Below are positions 8,001 through 56,830 of a DNA stretch of 60,442 bases, piece by piece (positions within the stretch are counted from its first letter, which is position 1; each line of letters begins with the position of its first letter). The DNA lies in the NCBI GenBank assembly GCA_008632985.1, contig QPGO01000125.1:186001-246442 (forward strand). The letters run 5' to 3'. A model generated the notes under the pieces. It did no database searches, was not told the DNA's origin, and worked only from the letters and a program-made list of their open reading frames with translations. Made by a program: the position numbers and the translations under genes. The DNA is from Psammoneis japonica (Eukaryota).

Positions 8001-8261
8001 AATGCAGTGGTCTTGGCCGCCACACTTGGTGTTCCACAGTGGACGAGAAGGCATGCAAACAGGGAGCTTTGTGCTTGTTTCATCTTCGCAGATCTCGAGC
8101 AGAAAGCTTGCAGACTGTCCGCAGTTGAGAGGAGAAGCAGAAAGCTCAAAACTGGGCAAAAGTGAATGACTGGGGTGTGTCTGGACAGCAGCTGTCCGGA
8201 GAATGGGGATCATGCATGCAGCATGCCAAGCGTTTTCGTTTCATTGTCAAGCTCTCTGCTG

Positions 8262-30185: not shown

Positions 30186-30469
30186 GGTGCGTCTTTTTTC
30201 CTCACAGAACGTGCGGATGTGCAGGTCTTAGAGGGAATTCGTGGGGTTGGTATGTTTGTACCGGTACGCACATGCACGTAGACGAATGAGAGACGAACCA
30301 CTCACCGTAGGAACCCGTAGGATATGTACCGGCAGTTACAAGTAAGCGGTAGCACAGTAAGAGATGTGCTGAGACGGACAGACGAGGGCGATGCGGAGCC
30401 CCGCCCGCCCGCCGCCCGCGCCTCGCCCATGGCTGGCTGGTGGCTCGGCTACGGCTGGGCGCCCATCCA

Positions 30470-33260
30470 CACCCAGCCCGCCCAGCCAGCCATGCCAAGG
30501 TTGTCCATGTCATCCAGAACCCAATCATCATTCTGAAGACACCATCAGCTTCAGCTTCTGCACAAAAGTTGCAGCAGCACCCAGCCAGAGCACAATCATG
30601 TTTGCCAGCAGTGTGGCGGAAGGGAGGAGGGGGCGGGGGCAACTTCTCTTTTTTTTTTCTTGACGTTCGCACAAAACACTCTGCTGAGCTCTGTGCTGTG
30701 CTTTCTCTTTTGCACACGCTCTCATCTTCCATCCTCTTGTTTTTCTCCATGCTCTGTCACTTTTTTGCTGTGCTGCAGTGCAAACATTCTCTGGCACACC
30801 CCCCACAGGCTCTTTGGCTTGTTGCAAAACACAGCGCCAGTGCAAGCTTCTTTGGATGACAGCCGCCACTTGAGAAAATCTTTGGAGACCAGTGCCAGAG
30901 AAAGCAAAAGCCAGATTGGCTTGCTTTCTGAGTGAGCAGCAAACCTGCACCACATGTGCACTTTCAACTGGGTTTCTTTCAGAGAGTGCACAGGTGGAAA
31001 AACAGGCTCGTCTCTCATCATTGGCAGAGAGTGATCATGGTGGGAGGTCACTTTGGCTCCTTGTGTGTTGGGAAGGCAGAGTTGAGCAGTCAACACAGCA
31101 GTGCAGCAGAGATCATCACACAACAACCTGCAGCTCTGCCACAGATTGTTGTCAAAATTGTCAAAAGGCTTTTTGACATTTTCTTGAGACCTTGTTCTGT
31201 CAAAAAAGTTTGACTTCTTTGGCAAAGCTCCTGCAGCAAAAATTTTTATGGCATTTTGTTGCACGCAAAGCTGTCAGCAGGTGACACAGCCAAGTGGCTG
31301 AAATGCCAAGCAACAATGTGCAGAAACTCATCACATGCTGAAATCAAGACAAAATTGCCACTTGCTTGTTTTTCTGAGAAAGTCATCTCTGCTGGTGTGA
31401 GCCCTTTTGCAAGAACTTTGTGCGAGGTCATGAAACCAGCACTTGGCCAACACAAAGTGTGCCCTTGATGTGCAATGCATCCCAACACACCAGCTCTCTG
31501 TCTGTCAGAGGGAAGTGATCTTGCCATCTCAACTGCTGAGCACAGCACTCCACCATCACCTCTGAGCAACTCAACACCTGATGGACCCATGTTTGGCATT
31601 CTCAAAAGGCAGGCTGCCCCTCATGCAAGCCAATGAAGAAGACATGACTCCCCAAGAATCATCAGGTGAGAGAGCTCAGCTTTCAGCACAAAACCCATGG
31701 AAAAGAGCGCACTGCACTTTCTTTCTAAGTTTTGGCAAAGTCTCTTCTCTCAAGATCTTCAGCAGCCACACCTGTGCCAATTTTTCCATTCTTGGCTGCC
31801 AACAAGAATTTTTAGAGAGCCAAAGATGATGAATGGCAATTCGTGGCGATTCCCCGGGAGTTCACCCTTCCCGTGGAAAAACATGGCAGAAGGTGGCAAT
31901 CCCAGGGAATTTTGAGAAAATGCACGGTGGGGCCAAACTGAGGCACACAGAAGGGCACAGCCAAGTTGTTGATGACTTCTGTTCAGCAACACACTGCTGC
32001 TGACAAAGCTGTCATCTTTGGGTGGATCTGCAACAGAACACGGGCTCTGCTGAGAAAAAACTTGGAGAGCTCTTGCTTGTTTTTTCTGTGGCTGTGGAGG
32101 CAGAAGGTCAGAACTTGAGATGGCAGTGCGTGCAAGTCATCACAAAGTCAATGGTCAGGCAGAGGTGCTGCTGCAGCAGAGAGGCAGTCTTGGAGCATGG
32201 ACACACTGACAGCATCAGCAAAACTGAAGGCAGCTGTGCTTGTGCTGCATCATGCACCCCCATGTGCGAGCATCGGGCAGAGACTGGACTTTCAGTTGGG
32301 CGGGTGCAATGCTGCCAGCTCTCAAGCTCTCACAGTTGAGCACCACTGTGGTCCCAGCTGGCTCTCTCCAGCCTGACAAGATTTGCCAGCAGGCAAAGCA
32401 GCAAAAAGAGACAATGAGCGGGCAAACACCAAACCACTGTTTGGTCAAGAGCACTTTGCCTGGCTGTGCCAACTGGAGCCACGTGCTGCTCCAAGGAAAA
32501 TCTGGCTCTAAATGTTTCCCCCAGCAACAACAGGATTTCCTGACAGCTGGCAGAGGGGAGCTCTGCCTCCATGAATTTGGAGTGGATTGCGTGCTCTTGT
32601 CCTTCCTCATCGGGTGGGAAGAAGGTGTGTGAGTTCAAAGAGGTTGTTGAGCTGGCAAGCGTGCATGGAAATGACTGGGTGCCATTGCTGCACACTTTCT
32701 TGAGGGGCTGTGCAACCAATCCTTGGAATTTTCTGCAACTTTGCAGGCCATCTTGGTCATGAAAAACTTTTTGAGTGCTGCATCAAAAGTGCCCTCTTTG
32801 CCACAGAGCAGCGCTTGCGTCATGCTGGCTCACAGCGCATCACTCCAGCCCCTCTTCAGCACGCGCCAAACAGAAGGCATGGTGACAAGGCATGGTGACA
32901 AGACAGAGACAGGGAAGACATTTGTGACATCCAGAGGAGCAGCAACACTCTTTTGTTGAACTGCCACCTTGGAAGAAAGCAATGTCGTTTTCTGTGTCAT
33001 CTTCAGAGCCCAGCTTCAGAATCAATTTTTTCTGGAGTCTGTCAGGGTTGCCAGTGTTTCAGTCAATGTGAGACAGAAAGCAGCCACTCAACATTTGGCA
33101 AAAGCTTGTGTTGATTTTCTGCTGCTTTCCTCTCGCACAATGTGCCAAGCACGCATGCCATCTTGTTTTGTTGTGCTGCACACACGAACGGACGAGTGAT
33201 CAAAAGTGCAAGCCAGCCAGCGAGCTGCCACAGCACCTCACTTCCCGTCGTCTGACTGGC
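30470..33260. other. TpA- and CpG-depleted hypermutated block 2 (unclassified repeat-derived DNA)
   Basis: About 4 TA in 2.8 kb by eye (31247, 31726, 31813, 32509); no recognisable protein. Confidence 0.85.
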
Positions 33261-34016
33261 GTTCTATGGTGTCGCACTAGCTCTGAAGAGTCGTCATTGT
33301 CATCCTTTCCGTCGGTTCCTTCCCGCCCACTCCCAGCTTGCTTGGTCGGTTCCATGACCTCCTGCCTTCCACCGCTGTAGGTCTAAGTGATGAATTCTGT
33401 ATCGACATTTGAAAAGAAGAGTTGTTAAATAGGCTGACAGGACAATGTCGTGCATCTGTAAACCAGGGCAGTTGGTCATCAGAATTCCACGTAATGATGT
33501 TTTCGTTTATGAACATTTTTATACGCTGGCTGAAGGGTAAAGGTGGTGGTAGCAGTCTACAGCACCGTATGGATGGTGTCCGGGTACTGTACACTGTAAC
33601 TTGTATGCCCGCATCATTCTTCAATTGTGTCTTTTTTCCGGTAGAGTAATTCCTTGCATTTGTTCGCTGCTAAAGTCATCAGTGCGTGCCGTCATTCTTT
33701 CGTTTTTTGTTCTTGGTACAAGAAGTATTCCCCACCTGCCGCACCAGCAGTTCCAACAGCAGGGGTCAGCGGGTACGACAAAAGTTAGAGAAGACTCGAG
33801 GACGATATCGATAGGCGAGCGCTTCAAAACTGCAAGTTAGCAGTAGACGAGCGTTTGCGTTGTTCCACCCATCTACTTGTGGGTGCACAGAATCAGTGTG
33901 GTAGGTGGTAGCACAAATAGATCGAGCGCATTCCTCCGGTTGTGCAGTTGTGTGCTGTCCTCATATACTATACTAGAGCAGATCGCGCCCCACGCACCCA
34001 TATAGCATACCATATA

Positions 34017-37879: not shown

Positions 37880-38570
37880 GTGTACAAGAAGTAGTACTGT
37901 ACAGTACAAGTATGTCCCAGTGCGCGTTCGCTTTATCGTACGTACGATATGTCCCCGTTCGTATGATAAGAGCTTATTATGTCCCAAAGCGTAAGGAGGC
38001 CTATATTAACAATACATAAATTAATATGTTATTATGTCCCAAAGCGTAAAGAGCGTGTCCCAAAACATAACGAGTCCTATATTAACATATAAATAAATGT
38101 TAACATTAATATGTCCCAATGCGTGACGAGCGTGTCCCATTATGTCCCAGTTCGAACCGAGCGTGTCCCCGTCCGATACGTACGAGGCCAATATTGACAA
38201 CTAGACATAATATCCCCGTTCCTCACGCTATAATGTCCCCGTTCCTGACGAGCGCGTCCCCGTTGTGTCCCCTATGGTGTCGTGGTGGTTATTAATTATG
38301 TCCCAAAGCGTAAGGAGGCATATATTAACAATCGTATAAATTAATAAATTATTATGTCCCAAAGCGTAAAGAGCGTGTCCCAAAACATAACGAGGTCTGT
38401 ATTAACAATTTAAAGAATGAATACATTAATATGTCCCAAAGCGTGACGAGCGTGTCCCATTATGTCCCCGTTCGAACCGAGCGTGTCCCCGTCCGATACT
38501 GTACGTACGAGGCCAATATCGAGAACTACACTATCTATAAACACAGGCTCAATATAAATGAATACATCAT
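37880..38570. repeat. TGTCCC-motif repeat with ~320-bp tandem duplication
   Basis: TATGTCCCAAAGCGTAAGGAGGC at 37978 and 38298; many internal TGTCCC units. Confidence 0.85.
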
Positions 38571-38571
38571 A

Positions 38572-39080
38572 ATAAGCCATGTGCACTGGTACAAAAATCA
38601 CGTAGAAATTTTACGTAGAAAAAATTATAAAAATTAGGGTTTGGGCCGATTTTTTTCTCGTGCTTCTACCGTGCTTCTCTGCTCCACCGACGCCTCAAGG
38701 AATCGTTTTCCCCTGAAACCATTGACACTTTACATGATGACTTTTACATAAGTAACACGATTCTGTGCGTGAACACTTCAAAATTCCATTTTCAGAAATT
38801 CGATCAACACTTCACTACGGTCCTACCACGGTAAACATTTTCCAATGATGGAATTTTGCCGAACGGTGGACATCGTCGTGTTTGTCATCAAAAAGTAAGT
38901 ACGCAAAGTGTCAACCGTTATGACTGAAATCGATTCCTTGAGGTCGTGGCCTATTTTTCGCAAAGCACGGGAAAAGCACGACGAACAAAATATTCTACGC
39001 GAATTTTCTACGTGAGTTTTGTACCAGAAATCGGCCCAAACCCTGTTTTTCGGGACTCATAACCCCTGCACATGGCTTAT
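38572..39080. mobile_element. MITE with long imperfect terminal inverted repeats, nested in the TGTCCC repeat
   Basis: ATAAGCCATGTGCA / TGCACATGGCTTAT termini; inverted pairs CTGGTACAAAAATCACGTAGAAA, AGGGTTTGGGCCGATTT, TCAAGGAATCG, TTGACACTTT; empty-site paralog at ~38206. Confidence 0.88.
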
Positions 39081-39429: not shown

Positions 39430-42400
39430 TTAGAAGCTTCGAGCTTTCTCCATCACACCTTCAATGGCAGCATTACCGGGAACATTGAACGAAGCCATGT
39501 CCTTCTTTCCTCCGCCCTTCCCATCAGTTCCTTCAACAGCCGCAGATGCCCAGGCCTTGCAATCTACATCCTTCATGCCCTTGGGTGCAAATGCCACCAC
39601 CATGAACCGATCTGTGGCCACATCAGCCGAAATCAACATGAGGGCCTTGTCCTTGATCTTTTTGCCATATGCCGTTGTCACAGATTTTGCAACCTTGCCT
39701 TGGCATCCAAAATCATGGCGTACTACAACCTTGTTCCCATCCGTCTCGGCAGCAGCAGCAATGACAAGTTCAACAATACCGGCTGTCTTGTCGGCATCTT
39801 TCTTCTTCTTGTAGGCAACCACCTTTTTCGAGTAATCAGCCAACACGTCTCGCAGCGCAACCTTTTTCACGGCCGAAATGTTCAAGTTATTCAACTCGAC
39901 CTTCAACGTCTTTAATTTGGCTTCCAATTCGTCACCGTCAAGAGCGCCAGCGGCAGTCACCTGGGCCTCAAAGGTTGCAGCCGCTTCAATCGCGTCCTTG
40001 GCGTCCTTCATCGTAACGGCGGTGATACGTCGGACACCCTTGGCGATACCTTCTTCGTTCAACAGGACAAAGCCTTCGGCCTGACTAGTGTTGGTCAGGT
40101 GAGTTCCACCGCAGAACTCGATACTGTATTCATTCCATGCATCGTCCTGGGGATTAGCCAATATGGTTGGAATGGGGTGAGGACCGACAGACACAACCCG
40201 AACTGGATCCGGGTACGTTTCTCCGAAAACGGCACGAAGGGAGGAAATCTTTTGGGCGGCATCCAGAGGGGCGACATAATCCTCAACAGGCACGGCCTGT
40301 TCAATGTGATTTTTGCAGATCTCTTCAATTTCGCTGAGCTGAGTTGTACTGATTGGTCCATTCCAAGAGAAATCAAACCGAAGCTTGCTCTCGTCGACAA
40401 GAGAGCCTTTTTGATCGACAGTCATGGTGGAATCCGAGTCTGCCTTGCGTACAAGAACTTCACGCAAGGCATAGTTCAGAACATGCGTCATTGTGTGATT
40501 GGCCGCAATGGGCGAGCGCCTGGCATAGTCTACTTTGCATGTAACGGCATCACCCTGGGTGACGGTACCCTCTGTCACTTTACCCACATGAAGGACGAAA
40601 CTTCCGTAGTTCTGAACATTGTCCACGGCAACTATAGCTCCAGATGCCGTCGTAAGGGTTCCCGTATCGTAGATTTGTCCTCCGGCTTCGGCATAGTAGC
40701 TTGTCTTGTCCAAAACTACGCCAATGGCACCGTCAGAAGCCGAAATGGAATTGACAAAACCAATCTTGTCTTCGGTTTCATTCCGTCCGACAAAAAGAGC
40801 CATGGCTTTGCAACCTTCGTAGTCTTGGTTCCAGACATACTTTTGGTCGTCTTGCGTTGCGGGAATACCCTTTCCAACCAAATGAGCCGTCTGCTCGGCT
40901 TGCAGCCGCATGTCCTTACCAGAGCCACCACTTGTCTTGGCACGGTGCGCCGCCGCGCTCAAGTCGTGCTCTTCCTGCATCTTGGCTTCAAAGCCATCCT
41001 TGTCCAGAGTCATGCCACGCTCTTCCGCCATGAGTTCGGTAAGATCCACCGGAAATCCCATGGAGGTGTACAAAAAGTGAGCGTCCGTTCCACTAAAGAC
41101 CTTGTCGGGTCCAACCTTGTCACACAAGTCATTGAACTTCAACAATCCCTTGTCGAGAGTCCTCGAAAAGGATTGTTCCTCGTCTTGAATGACCGCAGTC
41201 ACGTGTGCTTGCTTGGCCACAAGCTCGGGATAGGTTTCTCCCATGAGATCAACAATAGTCGGGACGAGCTTGGAGAAGAACCCCAACTCGGCTCCGAGAT
41301 TCTGTCGTCCATACCTTACAGCCCTTCGTAGGACACGTCGAAGGACATAACCACGTCCATCGTTGCTGGGCATGGCCCCATCGGCAATGGCAAAACACAG
41401 CGTACGAACATGATCGGCCACGACCCGATAAGCCATGTCGACAAAGCCAACATCTTGTGCTCCCAGTTTGCCGGCATAGGGCCGTGCGCCCGTGACTTGT
41501 TGAATCGCATCAAAAATGGGAAGAAAGATATCGGTATCGTAATTGGAATCGACATTTTGCAAAATGCTCGTGAGTCGTTCAAATCCCATGCCGGTATCAA
41601 TGTGCTTGGCGGGTAGCGGACGGAGACTTCCGTCGGCTTCGCGATTGTATTGAATAAAGACATTGTTCCAAATCTCAATCACGTCGGGCAAATCGGCATT
41701 GACGAGTTTGGAAGCATCCCGTCCTCCAATCCGGTCGTAATGAATTTCCTGTTGAACAAACAAAACAAAAAGCACAGATTATGTTAGACATGGTGAGGAG
41801 AAGAGCATCATTACAACAGCTTATCAACAGCATGTCCCAACAACGATACGCACCGTGCAAGGCCCACAGGGTCCGGTGGCACCCATCTCCCAAAAATTGT
41901 CCTTGGCATCAAAGGGCAAGACACGTTCGGGTGGTAGGTACTTGAGCCATAGCTCCCTCGCTTCATCGTCACAGGGCGTCATTTCATCACCACCAAAATA
42001 CGTGGCGTACAAGCGCGACGTATCCAATCCATACTCCTCCGTTAGACACTTCCATGCCATGTCAATCGCACCCTCCTTGAAGTAGTCTCCAAAGGACCTG
42101 GTGTGGATAGATGGGAGGTATGTTTGTTGTGAGTTGGATTCATACATAGATGAGGTTATAGATTTCAATCCTTACAACAATCATAAAGCATAGGGCTAGA
42201 CACATACATGACATACGCAACACATACAGTACTACTACTACTACATATCGCACTTACCAATTTCCCAACATTTCAAAAAAGGTATGATGATAGACATCCT
42301 TCCCAACATCATCCAAATCATTGTGTTTACCACCGGCCCGGATACACTTTTGCGAATTGCACGCACGCTTGAGCTTGGACAGTTCCAGATGCGGATCGGC

Positions 42401-42604
42401 CGTTCCCAAAAAGAGAGGCTTATACTGGTTCATACCCGCATTGGCAAACAGCAGCGTCGGATCGTCGTGTGGGACACAGGGCGACGAAGGCCAATACACA
42501 TGACTGTGCTTTTTGACGAAAAAATCAATAAAGGTCGAACGGACCTTGTCCATGGGCCATTCCAACGACTCTTTCTTTTTCGTGTTGCTTTCTTCAGAAG
42601 ACAT
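39430..42604 (-). CDS. AARS: Alanyl-tRNA synthetase (introns 42098-42257, 41749-41853)
   Basis: [69 protein letters not shown]. Confidence 0.98.
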
Positions 42605-43073
42605 GGTTTGCAGAGTAAATGATTTGTAACAATACTGTATGCTTTTTGTTCTTTTAAACACTCCTTCAGACGCGTTGTCGTCCGTCTCAACTCTCAACTC
42701 TTCAACAACAGCACCCAAAAAAGTTGAGACCGACCGAAGTTGAAAGTTCTGGGAACTGATGCGGACCAACAACACGCAACGCGCAAGCGAGCAACACGTG
42801 GAAGTGAGCGCGTCTGTCCGTGCATGCAACGTACCCAAACCTCTACAAACGGACACCTCTTTCAAATGAAAACTTGCCAAACATACTTACAGACACGCTA
42901 TCCACCACACAGATCTTTACGTAGGATTTGTACGAGGAATGATACCTTGCGACATAACATCAACAACATCACTCTCCTTCCAACAAAAAAAAGCAACGAG
43001 CAAACAGCTTTGTCTGTTATAGAGCGCTTGCCACTGCTGTTGCAAACAACAACGTGCTAGGCGATACTAAATC

Positions 43074-44902
43074 ATGAGTAGTAGTGACGAAGAAGAAAGT
43101 ATTGTTGGAGAGGAGGAACAAGAAGAAGTGACGGATCTTTCCAACAGGTGAGTGAGATCATGAGTACTTTTTCTGATCCCTCGATTTTGCTAGTCAAACA
43201 ATTCCTCACGTTTTTTTTGCATACTCTAACTAACTATTTCGTACTATAATTCTAAAGTGATGTTTGTACCAAGTATCAAGAAGCCGCCAAGATTGTCAAT
43301 CTGACGCTCTCGGGACTCATCACGCAATGTGTTGTTGGAGCCAAGGTTATTGACCTCTGTCAGGTAATTCTGGAACTGCAAACAAATCACGTGGATTTGA
43401 TTGTTTGTGGTCAAGTTTGATTAGAGCTTATCTAACGCTTCTCTGTCGTCTTATTGTTGTTTCACAGTTTGGTACCACGGTAATGGAAACACAAGCATCC
43501 AAGCTATACACCAAAAAGGTCAACGGTGTTGCTGTAGAACGGGGTGTTGCCTTTCCTGTTTGTGTTTCAGTCAATGATATTGTTTGTAACAACTCGCCAT
43601 TGGCGAGTGAAGAAGCGGTAAGTTTTTTGAAAAGACTGTATTCCGTGCTTATGTATTAGTCATGTTTGTCCTTGTTACTGCTCTCCTGTGGTGGTCGTTT
43701 CCAAGTGGACCACGATTGCGTGCTTCCTTTTCGTTCACGGCTTCTTTTACCGCCAATACGCAAGAGCGCGCTCGGACTGGTACACAGACCCAATTATGCA
43801 ATGCCATTAGGAAGATTAAAATCACCAACGTTGTGTTTGGAGGCGAGATTGTGGTTGATCTCTCATTGCGGGACGATCCCACGCTTCTTGTCTTGGAAAT
43901 AATAGTCTTGTCTTGGAATGCGCTTTTTCTGTCATTAGAATCAGACCCTCTGTATTCATGGTCGTATGAGTGTGTTTCACAAGATTCTAACCATACACTT
44001 GCTTTTCTGCAATAATAGGAACCACTGAAAGCGGGCGACATTGTCAAGCTCGATTTGGGATGTCACATTGATGGTTACATTGCCGTGGCGGCTCACACTC
44101 TCATTGTGTCGGAAACACCCGATGCTCCTCCCTCGGACGTGAGTGACGAAATGGGCAATGTCGCGGTGGCTGCCTACAATGCCATGTTGGTGGCTGCCGC
44201 CAGCATTACGGCGGGAGCGAAAAACAATCAAGTTACCGCCGCGGTCGAGCGAGTTGCCAATTCCTATGGCGTCAAACCCATTTCGACTGTACGCATGCAT
44301 CAAATGAAACGATACGTCATGGACGGGGTCAAGGAAGTCAATCTCAGGGAACCCAAACCGGAAGATTTGGAAGAGGGAGAAGAAAAGGTGCCCGAATGCA
44401 CCTTTGAACAGGCAGAAGTCTACGCGGTCGATGTGGCCATGTCGACCGGTGACGGAAAGGCCAAGCCTTCGCCACTCCGAACGACCGTGTTAAGCGCAAT
44501 GTCGAAGTCAACTACAAACTCAAGATGAAGGCGAGTCGCGCAGTATTGACGGAAGTGGATAAAAAGTTCCCCACCTTGCCCTTTACGCTTCGTCATTTTG
44601 AAGACGAACGAGTTGCCAAGATGGGTATCAACGAGTGTCTTTCTCATGGACTCGTGACGCCTTATCCCAGTCTCTTGGACACGTCGGGCAAGGTGGCACA
44701 TTTCAAGTGTACCGTCCTGCTCCTGCCGTCGGGGACGGTTCGTGTGACGGGACTCGACTTGCCCGACTATTTCAAGACGGACAAGCAACCCGACGAGGAG
44801 ACAGCCAAGGTTTTGCAAGAAATTGCAGAAGCTGCTGCCAAAAAGGCCAAGAAAAAGGCAGCCAAGAAGAAGAAAAAGAAGAAGGCTAATACTTCTGCAT
44901 AG
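43074..44902 (+). CDS. PA2G4: Proliferation-associated protein 2G4/EBP1 (M24 fold), multi-exon; probable missing T at ~44490
   Basis: TKYQEAAKIVN, GVAFPVCVSVN, DLGCHIDGYIAVAAHT, EVYAVDVAMSTG, FPTLPFTLR, VAHFKCTVLL, Lys-rich tail. Confidence 0.95.
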
Positions 44903-47900
44903 ATATAATGGTAGTAAAGAAGTAGTAGGTGAGGCACTTATGAATACATTCCGGGTTTCGTCTGTTGCTAGCACTTTGGCGTTGTCTGGAAATGTCTGCC
45001 AAACCAAATCGAAAGATTGAGCGATGCTGATGCAGGGGAGGGGCATCAAGTGGGGATGCCGACTTCTTGACAAAAATCGCCCCGCGATGTCCGAATTCCA
45101 GTCCGTGTGTGTCTACTAAGCTAGTCTGCAGGCAAATTGTCGATTCTGGATTCGCAATTCAAAAAACTCGTGACTCACGCATCACGCAAGTCATCATCAA
45201 CACGGCCCCAGACCAGGCAAAAACAAAAAGCTTGTTCCAAAAGCTTGTTCCAGCTCTGTTCCTTTGCATTGTGGGTCTTGTGCTGCCATCACTTGAGCTG
45301 GAACACATGCAGTCAAACTTTGACAGCAGCTTGATTGGGGTCAGGCCGGCAAATGTGGCACGCAACAACAAAAAGCTGCTGGGTGCACTCTTTCTTTCAT
45401 TGGAGCTTCTGGCCCACTTCTGTCCATTGTTGTGTGTTGCACACTTTCTTTCCTGCCAACACAGTGGAATTTTTTAGAGGACAAGCATTGCCAACAGCCA
45501 ACTTTTTTGGTGCTGTGTCAATGCCCCGCCCAGCACTGCGGCCATCAGCTTCTTGTGCTGCTCCTCAGCCCTTTGTGCAGTTGAAGCATCACGGAAGAGG
45601 AAGCAAAACAACTGATGGTGCAAGCCATTGAGACATTTGTGCTGTCTTTCACAGGGGAGGTTTCTTGTGGATGTTTGTCAACACATGACAATGCACAGCC
45701 TGCTGCATCCACGGCATTTGGCCACCCCCTGTTGCCATTGGCTTCTTGAACCGCCACCCCCCGCATGTGCTGCCCATTGGTCTGACTGCCACATTACATT
45801 GTGCATTGTTGGGGCTGGCTGCATCCTCCACAACAAGCTGCAAAGTTGCCGACAGAAAATGCTGCAAGAACATCAGTTGCTGTGCCAACTGGCAGCAAGG
45901 CAAACAATGATGAAAAGCAGAAGATGCAGAGAGGGTTGGCACAGGCCCGTCATTCCCAAAAAAGAAGAGTGTGCTTGAAAGCTGTCAAACAGTGCCAGGG
46001 GGCAGTGGACTCTCCCCATGCTGTGGCAAAAATTTGCATTGCAAGGAAGGCGCACCCTTTTCTTTGAAGACATTGATGGCTGCACGCTGTTGTGGATTTC
46101 TTTTGTTGCTGCTGATGCTGCTGTTGCTCAAAGGGGAGAAGAGAAGAGGCAGACTCAAGTCTGTTTGCTCCATGGGACCTGAGATTGTGAAAGTTCAGCT
46201 GAGGACTGCTCCAGGAAAAGCCCCCAATTGGAAAGACTGGTGGGCCAAGCAAGTTGTTTGAGCAGTTGAGTGGAGTCAAAAACTCTGTCAGCTTTAAGGT
46301 CAATCAGGATGAGCTGACTGCAGCTGCATTTGAAAAGTGCCAAAAAAGTGCAGTTCAGGCTGGGCAGATGAAGCTCAAGGGAAATTTCTTGAAGCCAGGT
46401 GATGCGCGCAACAGCGCAGTTGCAAAGGACTGTGCGCAGTGCCTCAGGGACAAAAAAGAAGAAGAGGAGGAGGACATAAAAGAAGTCAGTTTGGCTGGGG
46501 CCAATGAAATTGAATGCCATGATTTGCAGCTCAGGATTCTGTCTGAGGAATTTGCAAAATGCATCAAACTGCTTGAGCAGCTTCTCATGCATGAAAAACT
46601 TGCTGCCAAATCTGAAATGCTGCACACTTGTGGTGTGAGACACCAATGCTTTCTTGCACTGCTGCAGCCACTGGTCTGTCAAGCATGACAGCAGCCACTG
46701 TTTCAAGTTGTTTTAGAGGCATTGCCGTGTTCTCCACTCAAACCTTGAATGCAGGAGACCATTTTCTCTAATGTGTCAATGCCAGATCCCCTTGGCCTCT
46801 CTGCAAGCTCAATGATGCAAAAGCCAAGTCATCAAATGACCTTCAGAATCTCAGCAGGCCTGTTCCAGCCCCAGGTGATGAGCAATCCATCATGTGAGAG
46901 GCTGATTTTCTGTGCAGTTTGGCACATTGAACTCCTTCAAATTTGATCATTTTGAAAATCAAAAGGTGAGTGCACACAAAAAACATGAGTTTGTTTGTGC
47001 ACTCACCCTTTGATTTGGGAAAAACTGATTTTGAAGGAGTTCATTGCGCCAAATGCAAAAATGAGCCAGTGATGGGAATCGAGCCTGTGCACGTCACCTG
47101 GAGCTGGAGCAGGCCAATGGCAAGCAACATCAGGCTTTGTTGTCTGCATCACATGCACTGTTCCATTGCCTTCTTGGCATTCTTGGAATCAGCCCAGCAA
47201 TCAGCTGCCTTGTGGCTGACTTTGCCACGCATGCTGCACCTTTTCAAACAAGCTTTCAACTGCTCTCTTCACTGCAGTCACATTGTCCAGGTTTGATGTG
47301 GTGGCTGGCGCATGATTTAATCAAATTTCTCACATTCCTGAGTTGCAGGGTCTTTTGCTGGCAAAACCTTGGCAGGAGCAGACTTGGCTGCATCAGAGTC
47401 TCTTGGCTTGGTTTGCAGATGACAGCTGAGTGGATCAACAGATTTGACAAAATCATTGTCCATCACACCACAAGGCGTGCCACACATCTCTGAAGGTGTT
47501 CTTTTTGTTTGGTTTTGTTGGCTCACACTTGATCCTCATTGACAGGCTTGGGGCAAACTGCCAAAGAATGAGATGAGTGCCACAGCAGCCAGAGCATGAA
47601 ACCACACATTTTGGTGGTCATGGTGAGCCATTTTCACTCAATGGGAGTGACAAATGCTGAGTCTTGGCTGAAGCACAGAGCAAAGAGATGGCGACACCAG
47701 AGGCGGAGCTGCCAGAGGTGGTGGTCATGCCACCAAACTTTTTGAGCTTGGAAGAAGTCTTGATGAGATGATCCAAAAGACAGCCAAGCTCTGGCCCACA
47801 AGAAGCCAGTGGGAATTGCAGACTGACCTTTCCAGTCTTGAAGATTTTCAAGTCTTGAATGGCCACCAGCACAGATGAAAGAGACAACTTTGCTGATGCC

Positions 47901-50900
47901 TTCTCTGTCAAAGCTGGCAATCTTGAGGCTGATCCTGTCATCAGAAACCAAACAGAAAGTGCCTTCTTCCAAGTCACTTTGCTGCATCTTCATCACAACA
48001 ATGAAGAACAGGGAGCTGAGAAGCATTCTTGGCAAAGTGGAGTTGTGGGTGAGATGCAGATTCTGGCTTGCCCAGGTTTCATCCAGATCCTCAAGTGCCA
48101 CGCTGTGCTTTTTGCAGCAACTTCTCCACTTCCATGATCATGAAAGCAATGTTCCATGCAAAGGTCATGGCCTTTGAAAGCGGCGGGGTTGATGATTTGA
48201 AAAACAGCAGCCACCCATGTTGTGCTTGATGTGACTCAAGCGCATGGTCAAAATGGACTCAGCCAGATCACAGTTGCTTGTCTTGAAGCTTGTTGTTGGT
48301 GTTGTTGATGTTGATGATGAGAAGGTCAAATTTCATCTGCTGCTGCTTGGCTGTGGCTTTCTGGAACAAATCTTTGAGCTTGCCTGGGTCTAAACTGGGC
48401 CTTGGCATGCAGGGCTTTCACCAGAGTTTCTTGGGGTTTCTTGGGGCAGCATGCACTTGCACTTTCCTGCCATTGACAACTGCTTCCATTGTCATGGCCA
48501 ACTTGGCTGTCAGACAGGCTGGCTTCTTCAGACAAGGCAGCTCAGGAGCAGCATGCTGGAAGGCAGCAGGCTGGTGTTCTTTGACGAACTGCTGGTGTCA
48601 AAGGATTGCACACCAAATGAAGTTGAGTCTTGGCCACTGGCAGACTTGTTGTCATTGTCCAACATGCGTGGTTTGTCAGGTGGGGCGAGTTGCCAGAATT
48701 GCAAAAATGCTTTGTTGCTCCTGAAGAAGCAAGTGCCATTGCATTTCTGCTGCAGAGGTGGCTGGAGCATGATGCTTGGGCTCCCAACCTGTGACGACTC
48801 TTGGCTGAGAGCAAACTGTTGGCCAAGCATGGGGATGACATCACTGGCAGTGCAGCCAGCAACAACAGACAGTGTTGACATGCTCTTGTTGTTGTCGCCA
48901 ATGTCTCATCACACCAATGATGAGATCATGAGAAAAAGTTGAGAAGACAGCTTCAACACAAAGAAAGTGGGAAACCACACATGCAAGTGTGGAGCATGCA
49001 CAAACTGTGCATGAGTTTGCACTGTGTTGACAGGGTCTGCCAGTTTCAGAGGTTGTCCTCACAATGTCTGTCCTCCAGGGAGTTGCTTTGGCAGGAGCCC
49101 TTTGATTCCCATTGTGAGTGATGGTCCCTGCCTGTGTGATGGTGTGCCACATTGTGCACGAGAAGAGCCAGGTGAATGTCATCACTGTGGTGGCAGAAAC
49201 TCTGCCAACTGCTGGAGGGCTCAGGGTGGCAAACAGACATTTTTGCCAACCGTTGCTGGTTGTCAACTTTCTGTTGTGAAAGAGAATTGCTTGGCTGACT
49301 CAAATCAGTGCAGTTTGAGCAGAGTGAGCAGCAACCTGCAAATTTTTGTGGGAAAGTTGCCAACAGCATCATGAGTTGGTTGTTGCTGGGACAACTCAAA
49401 CAGAAGCTCAACAAAGCTGTGGCTGGCTTGAACAACTCTGCTGTTGCAGCCAGAAATGAGGCTGGCAATGGTTTGGGAGAGGAAAAGCCCCCCTCCTGTT
49501 CCAAGCACGCTGTGCTTTGTGCCAATGACTGTTGAAAGATGAATGTGCCAAATCCATTTTTGGCAATTGCTTCTTGACAACAACATGGAACCCCGTGTGT
49601 TGCTCATGCAACATGGCTTTTGTGCTGCTGGAGCACGCCAGATGGGAAGGCAATGAGGTGACAGCTCAGTTCAGTCATTCAAAGATGGGCATGTTGGGAG
49701 AGCAAGCTGCCAGAAAACAGCACACACGTGCTGGCTCTTTAAATCCTGCAATTTGTCCTGTTCTTTTCACTGCCAATTTTTGTGGCACTTTTGTCCATGG
49801 ACAAAAGTCGGCCCCCTTGGGCAACAGTCAGTGTGACAGATTTCAAAGCTGCTCAAATGAGGGGCAAAGCAATGCAATGCAGAGAGGTCACCCAGCTCCT
49901 TGGAGTTGATCCAAAAAGGGTTGGTGTTTGCTCCATTTGGAAAGGTGCATCTGCACATTGCTGCAATGGGGGCACATGTCTGGTCACATGCTGGGTGTCT
50001 CCAAGGTCATGAAAAAAAGAGGAAAAAGAGAAGAAGAGGAGAGAATGCCACATGTTCAATTTGCACATGCAACGGCAAGATGTTTTGTGCTTCTCATGCT
50101 GCTGCAATGACACAGATGGAAACAACAGACCATCCATGATGTGGCAACAATTGATGATCAATTTTGTCACCACACCTTTTCCTTCCAAAAATGTTGATTT
50201 GTGACATCCACATTTTTTCTGTGACAAGTGTGTCAATGGCAAGAGAGGTGAGAAAACATCCAAAAATGGACAGAAGCTCCTTCTTGTGGCTGCGCTGCTG
50301 CTTGGACTCTAGATTTTCACAACTTGCACAGCAACAGCCTGTGTTTTCTGTTTGCTGCCAAACCTTTCCCACCAAAACTGTCCTGCTGACAAGCAGCATG
50401 CTGTGTTTCTGTCTGACAATGGCGCCAATGAAAAGAGAAGCAGCAGCTGACAAAACCCAAACAAGCAGGGCAAACGAAAGCCCTTTGTGTGGCTTTGCCA
50501 CAAGACTCAGGCTCTCAGCTCTCACAGCTTGCTGTGCACTTCAATTTGAGTCATTTGCACTTGACAGATTAAAGGTTGACTCTCAGGGATTAAGTGCCAG
50601 GTTCTGTTGTCACATTGTGCCTGTGAGTGGCAGCAGCAGCAAGGCTGCTTGGTGGCCCAGCAGCTGGCTCTGTGTGAAATGGCTGCAAAAGGAAAGGATC
50701 CACCTGCAACACAAGAGGCAAGTGATCAAGAGTGCATTTTGCTGTGGTTTGGTGTCAAAGGAAATGTGTTTGTTTGTGGCACTGTGCTGGCAAGACCAGC
50801 TGCAGGGTGCAGCTCTGTCAGTGACCAACCTGGTGGGAAGCTCTCCTCTCATGACATTGGCATTGGGTCAGATCATGCAGCTGCGCTGCTCTGCCAGCTC

Positions 50901-51772
50901 TGCATGAAAATGATTGCAAAAGGAAAGGAGCCACCTGCAGTGCAAGAGACAAGCAGCCAAGTTTCCTGTGGCAGGCCACTTCTTGAAGAAGAAGCGCTGC
51001 AGGCAGCAGCTGCACTCTAGACTGGCCAGCCACAAAAGATGAAAGGACCATGATGTTGCCTGCAAGACAAAAGGACCACATTGACTGCAACTGGCACCAA
51101 ACAACTGCAGGAAATTTTCTTTTCTTCTGAGGGAAAATCCAGGGGAGCAAGAGCAGCTCAGCATGACCCAAAACCCAGCTCTTGTGCTCACACATGATGT
51201 GCACATTGATTTCCCCCTCATTGGCTTGTTGAACAAAGGAAACAAAGTGGGTTTCCTTTTTTGTTTTGTTGCACAATGTGAGCCAGATTTGTCACACCAA
51301 CTTGAGCTTTTGTGGGCTTGCTTGGAAAAGAGAGCACACTTGAAGAAACCACAGAAGCACATCTTTTTGCCCTTGAGAAAGTTCCCCCCCCCCCCCCCCC
51401 CATGGCATCTGCCTCACTCATTGTTGAGCGCAGTGCACAAAGAATCAGCGTGTCTTGGCAGCCACAGGCTCTGGACAAATCAACAGCCAGATGAAAGGAT
51501 CATGATGGTTGCAACTGCGCACTGAATTGCCAATGAATTTTTCCTTGCCTTTCCTTGTCCAAGGAAGTTTGGGGCCAAACAAGCAATTCCCCATGATCAA
51601 AAACCCCAAATGATGCAGCGGCTGGCATGTTCACAGATGATTCCATCTGCGGCATTGCCATCAAATTTGCACGCTGGAAAAATGTGCAGATTTCTGCTTG
51701 TTGTCATCAAAATGGAGTTTGCATCATTGTCAAATTCTGCACAAACCCTGGTGCATTTCCTGTGCAGTTCAT

Positions 51773-51928
51773 GAAGAGCCACCTGTGCAGCTGGACCATT
51801 GCCCACTTCACGGTCGCCACACAAAATGCAAAAAACTGTTGCCAATGATGGAAGAGCCACCTGTGCAGCTGGGCCATTGCCCACTTCACAGCCGCCACAC
51901 AAAATGCAAAAAACTGTTGCCAATGATG
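51773..51928. repeat. 78-bp tandem repeat, 2 copies
   Basis: GAAGAGCCACCTGTGCAGCTG...GCCAATGATG at 51773 and 51851. Confidence 0.95.
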
Positions 51929-52199
51929 CCTGCATTGCCAAGGTCTGAGCTCCAGATTAGAAGCACCACAGCAGCTGACAAAGACTCTGCTGCCATCTGC
52001 CATGCTGTCCAGTTTGTGGCATGATGACAATCACAGGAGTCAACAGGTTGCATTGATGCATTGGCTGTGTCACTTGTTGATTGACCCCCCTGATGAAAAA
52101 TTGCAAAAGGAACTTTTTCCATGGTGTGCTGAGTGTTGTTGAGCATGCTTTCCAGAAAAATCATTTGATTGCAGCGAAGCATTCCATGCTCTGATGCAC

Positions 52200-55120
52200 A
52201 CTTTTGGCTCCATGTTCACCTGTTTTTGTGCTGGTTTGTGATGTGGTTTGTGCCAAGAGTGTGATGTTGAGCTTCATGTGCTTGCACTGCACTCCTTCTG
52301 ATCACACTTCCCCAAGCAATCTGCTTGTGTTGGTTGACTTGTGCCAGGCAGCTGGAACAAAAACACAAGACACACACACGCACACACAGCGACCACCATC
52401 AAGACACCTGCATGAACCATGTTGGGTCTTGAGGTCCTGGTGCTGTTGAGACTTTTTGGGAGACATTTCCCAAGCAGGCACATGTCAAGGCATGCATCAC
52501 CACTTGGAAAGCAGCTGTGTCTGCTGTCACAAAAGAAAATGTTGACTCGCTCCTCTTGAAGAAAGCCACTCAGAAGGCTTGCGACTGTGTGGCAAGTCTC
52601 GCTCCAAAAAATCAAAAAGAACTCACTGCCATTTCAGATTCAAGTCATCTTGTTGATTTGCTTTTGACACTCTGTTGCCAACACAGGTGTGGGGAATGCT
52701 CAATCATGTCATCCTGGACCAGCACCTCAACAATGGTCTGATGGCACTGGACTTGCTGGGCTGTTGGTGAAATTTCAATGACAGCGCTGCTGCTGACTGT
52801 CCAGACTGTGAGTGCTTTTGCCACGGCATCAATGGAGCTGTGCTTCTCCATCTGGGCACAAACACTCACAGCAGACAGCAGCAGCTTGGCAACTTGGGGC
52901 ACTTGCTCATGATGAAAGACCTTTTGGCTGTGTTGGCAAAATCTCTTTCATTTTCCAGCAACGCCAAGCACTTGCAAGCATTGGCACAACTTGGCAGAGT
53001 TTTGAGCTCAAACTTGAAAACTTGGAAAGGATTTCTGCTCATGACTGCAGCACTGGTGACTTGAGCAGCTTTGTGCCAGATTGGAAGCAGGTGCTGAGGA
53101 CAGAAATCATGCACTGACCATGCTCCAGAAACAGCACAAGTTCAAAGATGACCACAAACCCCCATTTGTTGATGCCCCCAACAGCTTCAAGGAGTTGAGT
53201 GGGGCCCCAATGTTGTGCAATGCAAGGCACCATTGGCCATCTGTGGGGCAAGAAGGCTCGCCCTCAACTGCAGCAAACATTGGAGGAGTGTTCCAACCAA
53301 TGGACACTTCAGAGCAGCAGCCTTCCTGTTTGGCAAGGGGTGTTGCTCAAGGCAGCTCACTTGGCATGCCATGTGCACTTGCCCATGAATTGAGAGCTTG
53401 GTTTCCCAGCGCACTTGCCCCTTGATGCACAGATGGCTCATCTGCACACCAGCAGTGGAAAGACTCAACAGCCTTTGGGATTTTTCCTTGACACTTTGAG
53501 CCACGGGTCCCATGAGCATGATTGCTGCTCCACACCAATGACTCCAAAACACCCCCCTGCCACCATCGTCCCAGAGTGCAGCCTGGAAAATGACACCAAG
53601 AGCTGCTTTGGTGATCTTGGGTTGCCTTTCCTGTCACTTCACAGGCAGCCATTGTGATCTTGGAGGTTTCATTGGCAAGAACAAAATGTTTGAATGGCAG
53701 ACAGACAACAGATCTGATGTGCGGACCTCCTCTGTCATCAACAACAGTGTTGCCAAGAGTGCAGCTCATCACCCTCAGATTGCACATGCCAGTTTTCAAA
53801 AATCCCTGAGCCATCATGAAAGTGACAATGTGCTCAACGAGTTTCAAAGGACTGTTGTGGGCCATTTGCCAATGAAGTCAAAGGGGCAGCCAAGAATCAA
53901 TTCCTCCTGTTTCCTGTGCTGCTTGTTGTTTGCAAGACCCCAGCTGATGATGACCCAAGAACAGCCTTGTCAGCCCTCCCAATCAAATTTGCAGGACTGT
54001 CTGTCTCACATTCAATGAAGTCTGCAGCACACAACTGCGGGGCAAGCACTCTCACATGACCCCACATGATTGACTCAATCCATGGCTGTCCCACACCCAG
54101 CACCCTGGCGATCCAGCACAAGGACATGCATGGTTCATGAAGCAAGGTGTGAAACAGCCAAGAGGAAAGTGCAAGTGCACGAGGAAGCACTTGGATTGAT
54201 CTTCTGCACTCTGCTCAATGAAAGGGCCTGAGCTCTTTAGAGCACGGCACCAAAGATGGTGCTTGGTTGTCAGCACATCCTTCTGCACCTGGCGGCACCA
54301 TCACTGAGCTCTCTTTTGCCAAAAGTTTCAGGGGGGCTGTTTGTGCACACCATGGCCAAGATCCTCCCAGCCTGCCCCAGTGTTCGATGGTTTTGAGTGC
54401 AAATTCTCCATCCAACATGCCCTTCAATGCAAGAGGGGTGGACTTGTCATCTCTGGACAAAACGAGAGAGCCATGAGGAGGTCATCAGTGCGACCTGTTG
54501 GCCAAGACAGCCAAACAGCCTTCTTGCTCAGCTTGCAATGAGCCCATCATCAGCCTTGGTTGCACCTCACAAAGCCCAAATGCCACAATCCAACAACTCA
54601 TCAGGTGCAACAGCAAATGCAATCAAATCAAAAGATGGTGATTGTGGAGATGTTCCAGTCCGTGGCTGGCAAGAAAGATCAGAGGCTGACGACGATGCTT
54701 CATTTTTGATGTTGGAGTTTCTGACACAGATGCCAAGAAGTCATGCCTGTCCAAATCACCAGAAAATGGTCCCAGTGGCTCATGAAAAAGAGAAAAAATG
54801 CAGGTGTCTCAAGCCCTGCCTTGCCAGCATCATCGTTTCACACTTTTCACGACATCTTTTGCGGGGGGGCTGGTCTCTTGGCAAAGAAGCCAAAGCAACC
54901 CTGCAAATGGCAACAGCAGCACAGTTCATGGACAACAAGTGACAAAAGCCACACTCTGAAGCACACAGCTTTGTCAATGCAAGAATGAGCACAATGATTG
55001 AGAGGGCATCTCACCACTGCCTGCGTGGTGGCTGGAGAACCCCACATCAGCCACCCCCAGCTGGTGCCAGATGTTCCCAGTTGGAAGATGGTGCTGCTGG
55101 TCTTTCCCCATGCAAGCTCC
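52200..55120 (+). mobile_element. Degenerate CRE-like non-LTR retrotransposon (RT + CCHC finger + restriction-like endonuclease); 5' limit approximate
   Basis: Ordered fragments: RPFG.VG, EAGAE..NHA, FVDAPNSFKEL..MLCNARHHWP, GVAQGSSLGM, LGGFIG, HPQIAHASFQKSL, KFSIQHALQCKRGGLV, GDVPVRGW, HEKEKKCRCLKPC, LGKEA, RASHHCLRG. Confidence 0.8.
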
Positions 55121-55391
55121 AAGTCAAGCCAAGCTGGTCATTTGTGTGCAATGAGACTCCACACGAACACCGCACGCCCCGAAGCTCTTCACAAGGATTC
55201 TGCAAGACTGTCAAAGCACAAAGCAAGAGAGTGGGTGCAGCGCCAGAATCCATTCAAGTGCGCTCGTCGCGGATGCCAACTCATTGCGCGCAAATGACCA
55301 CAGGGAAACGTTTTGAAAAAATTGATGACCACACTTGAATGACCACCGAAGGCAAAAAGAAAAAATCAGCACGACGTTGTACTGCATCACC

Positions 55392-56830
55392 ATGGAGCGA
55401 CGTCGAAGGCATGGCGTTCCTGTAGCGACGGTTTCGAGCGATCAAGACGTCATATCCACTTTGCAAAGTTCTCATTATCTGCAACCGCAACAGCCTCGCA
55501 AAGGTGCTAGGCCATGTTCGAGCAGGAAGAACAACAGGGGTCGTTTCGAGATCTCTTTATTGTTGATCGTTATTTCCATCCTCGGGATGCTGAAGCAACG
55601 AACACGAACAACGTTTGAATTGTTGGACCCATTGTGCACATGGCGAGTACACAGGCGGGTACTTGCCATGCGAGGGGAGGAGTGCGACGACGTCATCGCT
55701 TTGCCTCATGAGTTGACAGCGGACGACTTGATGGGCGACATTAACAATGATCATTTCGAGCAGCCAGCAGCCATTTCCAACACTCGCGATACTGAAGGTG
55801 GCTGCATCCCAATGCATCCATGGCAAACTACCCAATTCCCATCATGCAACATGCTTCATGAAATAATGTCATCACCCAATGAACTACGACGCATAAACAA
55901 AGGCTCGCAAAGTATTGTGTTTGAAGCGCCACCATCTGGAAAACAGGGACTGATCCTTGAAACTCAGAAATATAGCAAGAGCAAATTCAACTCCGATGGT
56001 TTTAAGCAACGTCGGTACGATGCAATAATACAGGAACGTCTCTCGGCGTCACCATATGTTACGCCCATGTACGGATTCTGCGCCATGAGCGTTTTGGCCC
56101 CATTGGCCCCGGCGGAACAACTTTGCAGAACTATATTGATTCTGTTCGCGGCGGCGGTCAGGAGGCCTCCTCCTTAGACAAGCTCCGCATAGGTGTGCAA
56201 GTCGCCCAAGGGCTTGCGGCTTTGCACAGCATTGACCATGACGGCCGACCGAGCTTTGCCCACAATGACCTTGACGTCTCCCAACACGTTTACTTGAATG
56301 GTGTATTTCAGCTGAACGACTTTAATTTTGGTAGGATGTTGCTGCACAATCCGCAGGAGAATAATGCGACCACCTGCAAGGACTCGTCGAGAATGGGTGG
56401 GTGGAAATACAGGGCGCCAGAAGACCTGGCAGACATTTATGGATATCCTGGTGGAGGACCTTTTCTGATGGATAAGGCAGATGTATTTAGCATGGGAACT
56501 GAGTTTTACTCAATCATTACCAACTTATGGTTGTGGGAAAAAGACTCGAGACGAGAATCCGCCAAGCGCATCATTGCCGGTGAACGACCGCCACTCCCCG
56601 ACAGAGTTTTGCAAAGCACTGACGAGGCACTTGATGCTTTGATAAAAGCCATGAACATGTGTTGGAAGCAAGATCCGGAAGAAAGGGCAACTGCGCGTGA
56701 GGTGGCAAAATTTTTGATGGGAGAGTTGCACAGATTGAATAAGGGAAAAAGTGGTAAGAACAACGATGTGGTGACGGTGAAGTTGCCACCCTTGGTACAC
56801 GGACCGGATGATTTCAGTGATTGTATGTGA
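55392..56830 (+). CDS. Membrane-anchored protein-kinase-like protein (PKDCC-like); probable missing C at 56107-10
   Basis: TM helix, CIPMHPWQ..FPSCNMLHE, QERLSASPYVTPMYGFC, AHNDL, LNDFN, YRAPE, KADVFSMG, CWKQDPEER. Confidence 0.85.

Follow-up and report, generated by a model that had tools for sequence, protein, structure and literature searches.

Blocks nearly devoid of TpA in a diatom genome point to region-limited TpA to TpG/CpA hypermutation

In this study, we analyzed a stretch of 60,442 nucleotides (hereafter, the window) from the genome of the diatom Psammoneis japonica (assembly GCA_008632985.1, contig QPGO01000125.1, positions 186,001 to 246,442 of the forward strand) and found that it contains three blocks from which the dinucleotide TA has almost disappeared. 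Within these blocks, TA has changed to TG or CA. The change is specific to this dinucleotide, depends on the bases that flank it, is independent of the loss of CpG, is confined to the blocks, and is also present in contigs assembled from a public sequencing run (named X1). Taken as a whole, these observations are best explained by a region-limited TpA to TpG/CpA process, probably enzymatic deamination of adenine in DNA, of the same kind as that described in the chlorarachniophyte alga Bigelowiella natans (bioRxiv 10.64898/2026.01.13.699255). We assign this explanation a probability of roughly 0.6.

The background of the window is uniform, with approximately 47% G+C, 42 TA per kilobase (kb) and 52 CG per kb. 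All 43,103 bases outside the blocks, which contain 1810 TA, were used as the background for comparison. It is interrupted by the following three blocks:

4124-8391, no strand: block A, TA at 10% and CG at 71% of background
30451-33264, no strand: block B, TA-less and CpG-poor, with rho_TA of 0.02-0.04 and rho_CG of 0.16-0.24
45123-55379, no strand: block C, TA-less and CpG-poor, enclosing the interval 45470-54240

When calculated for each 1-kb window, rho_TA is 0.00-0.13 in the blocks and 0.45-0.83 in most windows outside them, and rho(CA+TG) is 1.6-1.97 in the blocks compared with approximately 1.0-1.35 outside. Each kilobase of block C holds only 0-5 TA (rho_TA 0.00-0.08) and 6-14 CG, with rho(CA+TG) of 1.69-1.97. 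The block borders are sharp, the transition being completed within approximately 200-400 bases. In the interval 45470-54240, a total of 15 TA were counted, compared with approximately 368 expected at the background density of 42 per kb.

An earlier note on this DNA had listed these surviving TA and proposed that TAY is mutated while YTAR is spared (Y, pyrimidine; R, purine). Its positions were right to within one base. The survivors of the interval are as follows:

TTAG: 45475, 46714, 51958 and 54238
TTAA: 46295, 47318, 49740, 50570 and 50591
CTAA: 46769 and 48391
CTAG: 50310 and 51018
Contexts other than YTAR: TTAC at 45795 and ATAA at 46477

The proposed sparing of YTAR was borne out, as this context accounts for 13 of the 15 survivors, compared with 269 of the 1810 TA outside the blocks (binomial P=1.3e-9). 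With the three blocks pooled, YTAR is the context of 27 of the 37 TA that survive (P=3e-15; Fisher odds ratio 15.5). The depletion of NTAN tetramers inside versus outside the blocks is accordingly uneven and not uniform: the YTAR tetramers remain at 18-32% of their background density and the other 12 contexts at 0-8%, and in blocks B and C only 0.6% of non-YTAR TA is left. Moreover, YYTARR makes up 17 of the 27 YTAR survivors versus 63 of 269 outside (P=4e-5), and RYTARY none of the 27 versus 73 of 269; therefore, the context extends to the second flanking base. YYTARR is the best protected form of TA. An equal loss of AA, which would have spoken for a less specific process, was not seen, AA/TT in the blocks being 1.03 of background.

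Two conversions, TA to TG/CA and CG to TG/CA, account for all shifts of composition in the blocks. Per kilobase, CA/TG increases by approximately 77, while TA decreases by 40 and CG by 43, so that a TG+CA gain of about 80 per kb balances the combined loss of TA and CG. The remaining changes, a decrease of AT, AC/GT and TC/GA and an increase of GC and AG/CT, concern dinucleotides that overlap the converted sites and are collateral to these events. If the A of TAY on either strand is the target, YTAY can only become YTGY, RTAR can only become RCAR, and RTAY can become either product. The gains per kilobase in block C and the values predicted by this strand rule are listed below:

YTGY+RCAR: gain +30.8, predicted +33.4
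YCAY+RTGR: gain +9.3, predicted +11.5
RTGY+RCAY: gain +17.5, predicted +22.2
YTGR+YCAR: gain +21.5, predicted +17.7

In the absence of a strand rule, YTGY+RCAR and YCAY+RTGR would each gain approximately 22.5 per kb in this block. TG and CA show no consistent asymmetry along the blocks, and both strands are affected about equally, which argues for action on duplex DNA in place and not on a single-stranded or RNA intermediate.

A duplicated host sequence in block A provides a paralog against which the direction of change can be read. The two copies are:

5599-6387 (5599-5793 and 5855-6387), plus strand: mutated copy of pieces of the CobW region, diverged and internally deleted, with TA and CG lost
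9166-11605 (9166-9357 and 11081-11605), plus strand: source of normal composition, in and beside the CobW gene (open reading frame (ORF) 9444-11903, minus strand)

The copy is 85% identical to 9166-9357 and 73% identical to 11081-11605, and these source pieces were taken as the unmutated reference. Among the 13 aligned TA of the source, seven read TG, five read CA and one reads GA in the copy, and none is kept. The 45 aligned CG became TG in 16 cases and CA in another 16, with seven kept, while TG and CA themselves are largely retained (47 of 58 and 49 of 63, respectively). Counted on both strands, A to G changes affect 13 of 27 A preceded by T, compared with 6 of 103 after A, 11 of 118 after C and 11 of 91 after G; the value after T is close to the maximum, since one A per TA can change. 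Similarly, C to T changes affect 34 of 89 C followed by G, compared with 6 of 120 before A, 9 of 75 before C and 6 of 70 before T. With regard to the tetramers, RTAR became RCAR in four of five cases and YTAY became YTGY in both of two. Thus, on the strength of the tetramer gains and of this paralog, targeting of the A in TAY, on one strand or the other, holds as a strong preference but not as an absolute rule. The two copies also differ by 61 transversions in approximately 720 aligned bases. Because the gap in the copy removes coding sequence, the copy is not a spliced retrocopy.

It should be mentioned that the source pieces are themselves mildly low in TA (rho_TA 0.32-0.33, compared with 0.53 for the rest of the ORF), as is the unduplicated segment 11606-13000 (rho_TA 0.33-0.37). 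A hit on both CobW copies resembling repeat-induced point mutation (RIP) was considered, but its effect would not be separable from the locally low TA, the unduplicated neighbor being similarly low.

Besides the CobW fragment, part of a host gene lies in TA-poor DNA of block A:

3176-5122, minus strand: P0001, a conserved diatom gene with an ORF of 648 amino acids, the 5' third of which (residues 1-333, 4124-5122) lies in TA-poor DNA

A total of 133 homologous matches were found for P0001, the best of which are 56-58% identical over 93-98% of the length, and its named relatives are diatoms (Bacillariaceae, Cylindrotheca, Nitzschia, Pseudo-nitzschia, Seminavis and Thalassiosira). The frame of the TA-poor part is still open, and this part contains no Tyr, compared with 3-11 Tyr (median 7) in 35 aligned homologs. 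Former Tyr positions are encoded by CAY (His) or TGY (Cys). Three columns with Tyr in at least half of the homologs read His in P0001 (CAT, CAC and CAT); one of these is Tyr135, which is invariant in all 35 homologs and is CAC in P0001. Opposite the eight Tyr of the closest relative (P0002), P0001 has H, E, H, C, C, H, H and C, that is, His or Cys in seven of eight positions, whereas in the part that lies in normal DNA six of seven Tyr of the closest relative are kept. Conserved columns are retained alike in the TA-poor part (79 of 98) and in the normal part (81 of 101). P0001 therefore still looks constrained, and the mutation process appears to have leaked into a working or recently working host gene.

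CG is reduced to 0.21 of background in blocks B and C, where its retention also depends on context (6% for YCGR, 20% for mixed contexts and 31% for RCGY). Among the CG triplets, depletion relative to background is strongest for TCG (0.13) and weakest for GCG (0.38). As in the decay of methylated CpG, C to T changes are concentrated before G and other C contexts are spared, which is seen here as sequence change alone. CpG decay explains half of the TG/CA gain. The two losses do not always coincide. In block A, CG is normal at 4001-5200 (10-14 per 200 bases) while TA is reduced to 0-3 per 200 bases, and CG is lost only in the CobW fragment (5801-6400). At the right edge of block C, approximately 1.1 kb (54240-55380) is free of TA while CG recovers. 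The loss of TA is therefore either more rapid than the decay of CpG or independent of it.

The same TA-less sequence was recovered from the Logan contigs of X1 (657,387 contigs), in a comparison that covered block C. These contigs cover the block at an even word depth of 57-65x, most of it being at single-copy depth. The window and X1 differ at 27 of 5913 bases in block C (0.46%). In contig records 1 and 8, which are mostly flank and also include approximately 3.1 kb of block C, 28 differences were found in 11259 bases, a density about two times sparser. The ATAA exception among the survivors reads TG in X1 (46478). With their evenness and their number of short contigs, the X1 data look like accurate short reads, and a base-calling artefact is unlikely to lie behind the TA-less sequence. 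At three places (47906-7, 49089-90 and 50816-7), the window and X1 show a TG/CA difference at two neighboring bases, which was considered as evidence of independent hits on TA in two haplotypes; this interpretation was dropped, as an ancestral CG is an equally good explanation.

Based on the above results, islands of diatom nuclear DNA would undergo a region-limited TpA to TpG/CpA change that acts on double-stranded DNA and hits the two strands about equally. The best-fitting target would be the adenine of 5'-TA-3' with a pyrimidine in the next one or two bases, such that TAY is the main target, TARY a lesser one, and YYTARR is protected. The islands contain decayed repeats, a dead beta-helix gene and a stray host-gene fragment, and the process would leak approximately 1 kb into an adjoining, still-conserved host gene. 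The older cores (blocks B and C and the CobW fragment) would, on top of this, have undergone the usual change of methylated CpG to TG/CA. The agent may be an ADAT2/TadA-like or other lineage-specific deaminase, which would convert adenine to inosine in DNA and could be brought to silenced or foreign chromatin to defend the genome. We infer that the cause is a DNA adenine deaminase of the ADAT/TadA-like type, and that the process is of the same kind as the TpA hypermutation of the B. natans mutation-accumulation lines. A more far-reaching version is possible though doubtful: both signatures would be written by a single deaminase that is targeted to chromatin, acts on the A of TA(Y) as well as on the C of YCG, and represents an ancient defence module of the SAR supergroup.

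Several points weigh against adenine deamination as proposed here. YTAR is depleted as well, to about a quarter of background, and TAY is a preference and not an absolute requirement. One aligned TTAA has become TG in the CobW copy, and three Tyr codons of P0001 that now have a 5' pyrimidine became CAY, both contrary to the strict rule; the CAY exceptions may reflect selection between His and Cys or a later change of the wobble base. The gains of YTGY+RCAR and YCAY+RTGR in block A (+17.7 and +11.2) fall between the predictions with the strict rule and those without a rule, and the baseline of all such predictions takes the ancestral composition of the blocks to be that of the flanking genic DNA. 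In addition, "A of TAY" is equivalent to "T of RTA", so the attacked base is not readable from the sequence, and deamination of a modified adenine, another candidate of the earlier note, looks the same in sequence as chemistry on the paired thymine. The assembly and X1 may derive from one and the same sample, and there is no record of the platform used for X1. Neither six-frame Pfam analysis nor the ORF and IMG/VR searches turned up a viral or transposon protein domain in the blocks. As for the candidate enzyme, the usual substrate of eukaryotic ADAT2/3 is A34 of tRNA with C, G or A as the next base, and not TAY. Amphioxus BjADAT2, which deaminates DNA with a preference for TCG in the case of cytosine, prefers GAA and not TAY in the case of adenine (PMC10354150).

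The ambiguity of the attacked base leads directly to a thymine-directed alternative, in which a TET/JBP-type dioxygenase oxidizes T in R-T-A and 5-methylcytosine in CpG within silenced chromatin. The resulting 5-hydroxymethyl- or 5-formyl-uracil and 5-formylcytosine would mispair and give T to C and C to T changes; 5-formyluracil is known to mispair with G. Its equivalence to the TAY target is exact in sequence, and one chemistry on 5-methylpyrimidines would cover the loss of both TA and CG, which are pyrimidine-purine steps that both end as TG/CA. Nevertheless, we consider it unlikely, as most of block A loses TA without CG, which makes the two processes at least kinetically separate, and as the 5' preferences differ, being Y before C (YCGR keeps 6% and RCGY 31%) but R before T. 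No sign of such bases in diatom DNA came up, though no search was aimed at them. Slow, context-dependent decay of TA and CG in unrepaired silent heterochromatin would need no dedicated enzyme at all, and it agrees with the age of the blocks, to which the transversions of the CobW copy testify, and with the clear presence of CpG decay. Against such decay, non-YTAR TA is further gone (0.6% left in blocks B and C) than the most decayed CpG context (6% left), other A to G changes reach only 6-12%, block A retains 71% of its CG after the loss of 90% of its TA, and the borders are sharp (approximately 200-400 bases). These observations make it quite unlikely, as does the finding that in Bigelowiella the same signature arises at approximately 1000 times the base rate within 378 days (bioRxiv 10.64898/2026.01.13.699255).

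ADAR-like A-to-I hyper-editing of double-stranded transcripts, followed by reverse transcription and re-insertion, would fit the presence of repeats, including a foldback, in parts of block C. Editing of the ADAR type is graded by the 5' neighbor (U>A>C>G), favors a 3' G and leaves changes clustered on one strand, whereas in the blocks a 3' pyrimidine is preferred, specificity for TA is near-absolute, AA is untouched and the strands are even. The process also grades into a host gene that is in place, and the CobW copy is not a spliced retrocopy. While ADAR favors a 5' U (bioRxiv 10.64898/2026.01.13.699255), it is described as metazoan-specific (PMC3239186), and we regard this route as very unlikely. 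A technical artefact, in which modified bases are systematically miscalled in a long-read assembly, would be compatible with the absence of a platform record for either the assembly or X1. Modified bases can indeed give motif-specific miscalls in nanopore data. However, the X1 contigs reproduce block C with 0.46% differences, and a transversion divergence of 8% is found in the blocks together with indels, a stop, a frame break and allelic differences between TG and CA, which leaves an artefact highly improbable. Selection against TA, whether as TA/TTAA transposon target sites, TATA-like promoters or nuclease sites, could be seen in the mild genome-wide under-representation of TA outside the blocks (rho_TA approximately 0.55-0.65), but an invariant Tyr and other conserved Tyr have been replaced, the same purge is found in a pseudogene and in a gene fragment, and the palindromes TTAA and CTAG survive instead of being purged; its chance of being the cause is very small. 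The earlier note had also named error-prone repair synthesis by DNA polymerase eta, which gives A to G at WA (W, A or T). This candidate has hardly any probability and was rejected, since AA/TT remains at 1.03 of background and A to G changes in the CobW copy affect 6 of 103 A after A compared with 13 of 27 after T.

The other features identified within the blocks are as follows:

6954-7918, minus strand, block A: pseudogene of a right-handed beta-helix protein, with one in-frame stop and one frame break or 8-residue gap
46857-47115, no strand, block C: MITE-like (miniature inverted-repeat transposable element) foldback of 259 bases that pairs with its own reverse complement over the whole length
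50006-52006, no strand, block C: moderately repeated part, with an X1 word depth of about 490-560 and repeat families D4 and D9
51773-51928, inside 50006-52006: 78-base tandem duplication
50677 and 50908, inside 50006-52006: 46-base repeat

The beta-helix pseudogene has a single relative, P0242 (68% identical), in a search among 5.8 billion clustered proteins of similar length. P0242 comes from a 2.2-kb Logan contig and matches the Pfam family Beta_helix (E=4.7e-10). Its 15 Tyr are represented in the pseudogene by five H and three C, the others being W, F, P, A, R, stop or gap. In IMG/VR, seven pattern matches to the pseudogene were obtained, none of which was confirmed as a relative. It may be a rare or foreign gene. 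When six-frame read-throughs of blocks A, B and C were analyzed with stops as X, no Pfam family was matched, and the ORF at 50164-50907 in block C has no relatives among 1.84 billion representative proteins. The foldback has a word depth of 2407 in X1 (bin 46671-47337) compared with approximately 60 elsewhere, about 40 times that of a single copy, and loose contig ends of other foldback copies fall at 46857 and 47115, exactly at both of its ends. Metagenome matches to the end motif of the foldback (eight loci on contigs of 64-72% GC) were dismissed as chance, as only the motif of 22-38 bases was matched. A run of approximately 16 C was observed at 51387-51402 in the moderately repeated part of block C.

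Some further observations concern the arrangement of the locus in the sequencing runs. Run X2 shows GT..AG skips in the flanking genes and hence looks like RNA. Its depth is close to zero across most of block C, from which no conclusion on expression is drawn. Contigs that join 45356 to 56730 are present in both X1 (depth 61) and X2 (depth 803); they skip 11,373 bases with the whole of block C. The shorter side of this join has only 45 letters, and the join could represent either a haplotype without the block or a shared short repeat. A further join in contigs of X1 and X2, from 40373 to 44864 with an insertion of 28 other letters, leaves out 4490 bases, among them much of the alanyl-tRNA synthetase ORF, and might reflect an alternative arrangement or a paralogous locus. 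In the flank of normal composition, 11 of the listed differences separate the window from X1, and four of these (41792, 41857, 42242 and 44994) are TA versus TG/CA, all in non-YTAR contexts; these numbers are too small to bear on low-level action of the process outside the blocks.

Outside the blocks, the flanking ORFs contain domains of LCIB-type carbonic anhydrase, CobW, HA, alanyl-tRNA synthetase and protein kinase. For the alanyl-tRNA synthetase, the closest named relatives are diatom proteins (Seminavis 73%, Cyclotella 71% and Odontella 70%), and no match above 75% identity was found for the flanking genes. Judging from these similarities, the genes that flank the blocks are diatom genes. 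No deaminase was detected among the 17 large ORFs scanned in the window. The most TA-rich kilobase is 38001-39000 (86 TA, rho_TA 0.99, rho_CG 1.55), which holds a 164-base direct repeat (38016 and 38336, 91% identity) and a 68-base inverted repeat (38693-38760 and 38876-38943). In addition, repeat families D5, D7 and D8 at 28782-29388, each with two copies approximately 371-382 bases apart and of 85-92% identity, together indicate a tandem duplication with a unit of approximately 375 bases in DNA of normal composition.

With these blocks, a diatom becomes the second major lineage with TpA to TpG/CpA hypermutation, and the motif is refined. The occurrence of the same signature at saturation in a diatom argues for a widespread and possibly old mechanism, and not for the curiosity of a single alga. 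The preference for a 3' pyrimidine, the protected YYTARR, the equality of the strands, the independence from CpG and the leak of Tyr to His/Cys offer leads for the search for the enzyme. As TA to TG/CA never creates a stop codon, a mutated ORF is interrupted only where CpG decay (CGA to TGA) or an indel breaks it. Gene finders and repeat annotators will miss such TA-free and Tyr-free sequence. For base editing, a natural adenine deaminase that acts on DNA with a tight motif would also be of interest. If a single dual-activity deaminase were at work, the system would mirror fungal RIP with a purine as its target, inactivating foreign or repeated DNA without new stop codons; TAY being hit while YYTARR is immune would be the footprint of the enzyme and a handle for its identification, and the module would be shared across the SAR supergroup, at least between diatoms and chlorarachniophytes.

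The closest known system is that of B. natans. In mutation-accumulation lines of this alga, Mettrop et al. report TpA hypermutation of two integrated viral regions, which over 378 days mutated at approximately 6e-7 per site per generation, or about 1000-fold the base rate; 230 of the 231 de novo changes in the viral inserts were A to G or T to C, all of these on TpA, and the authors propose DNA adenine deamination by an ADAT2 homolog as a defence against foreign DNA (bioRxiv 10.64898/2026.01.13.699255). Both systems share TpA to TpG/CpA transitions confined to blocks of degraded and mostly unannotatable content, as well as clusters of 1-kb windows depleted in TA and enriched in CA+TG, and the same adenine-deaminase hypothesis is put forward for both. 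By the cluster cut-offs of the preprint, 15 windows of 1 kb qualify here (three in block A, two in block B and ten in block C). The type of change also agrees, with 12 of 13 paralog TA changed to TG/CA and Tyr changed to CAY/TGY relative to outgroups. The host here, however, is a diatom (a stramenopile) and not a chlorarachniophyte (a rhizarian), and the blocks are near saturation (rho_TA 0.00-0.08, compared with 0.45 in the nucleocytoplasmic large DNA virus (NCLDV) insert of B. natans). CpG decay is superimposed in the diatom, whereas the words CpG, flanking, trinucleotide and diatom do not occur in the main text of the preprint. Viral inserts are the targets in B. natans, while here the sequences hit include a fragment of one host gene and part of another, and no viral domain was found in the six-frame Pfam analysis. 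Our literature search revealed no account of TpA-specific hypermutation other than this preprint, and none for diatoms.

The blocks also resemble the products of fungal RIP, which likewise consist of dinucleotide-specific transitions to near saturation on both strands, with leakage into adjacent single-copy genes. RIP is confined to repeats or foreign DNA and often accompanied by cytosine methylation, which may also hold for the blocks. With respect to duplication, parts of block C are repeated and the CobW fragment is duplicated and mutated, while most of block C is at single-copy depth. The direction is opposite to that of RIP (TpA to CpA/TpG instead of CpA to TpA), with CA/TG raised to 1.52 times and TA reduced to 0.03 times background, and the attacked base is probably a purine. 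RID-related DNMT4 genes, whose function is unknown, occur in many diatoms, and the CpG methylation of diatom transposons is carried out by DNMT5 (PMC9998398). The CG to TG/CA change in blocks B and C and in the CobW fragment is like the methyl-CpG decay of transposons in diatoms and other eukaryotes; unlike such decay, the loss of TA is faster and occurs where CpG is intact.

With regard to candidate enzymes, members of the ADAT/TadA family convert A to I and are also able to act on C in DNA, as do TadA-derived base editors, TbADAT2 and BjADAT2. Bacterial TadA reads U-A-C-G, which resembles the TAY target found here. We know of no ADAT/TadA deaminase that acts on chromatin domains. The cytosine preference of BjADAT2, TCG, coincides with the CG triplet that is most depleted in the blocks, and deaminase families specific to stramenopiles, such as deaminase-SAM-Tudor, have been described (PMC3239186).

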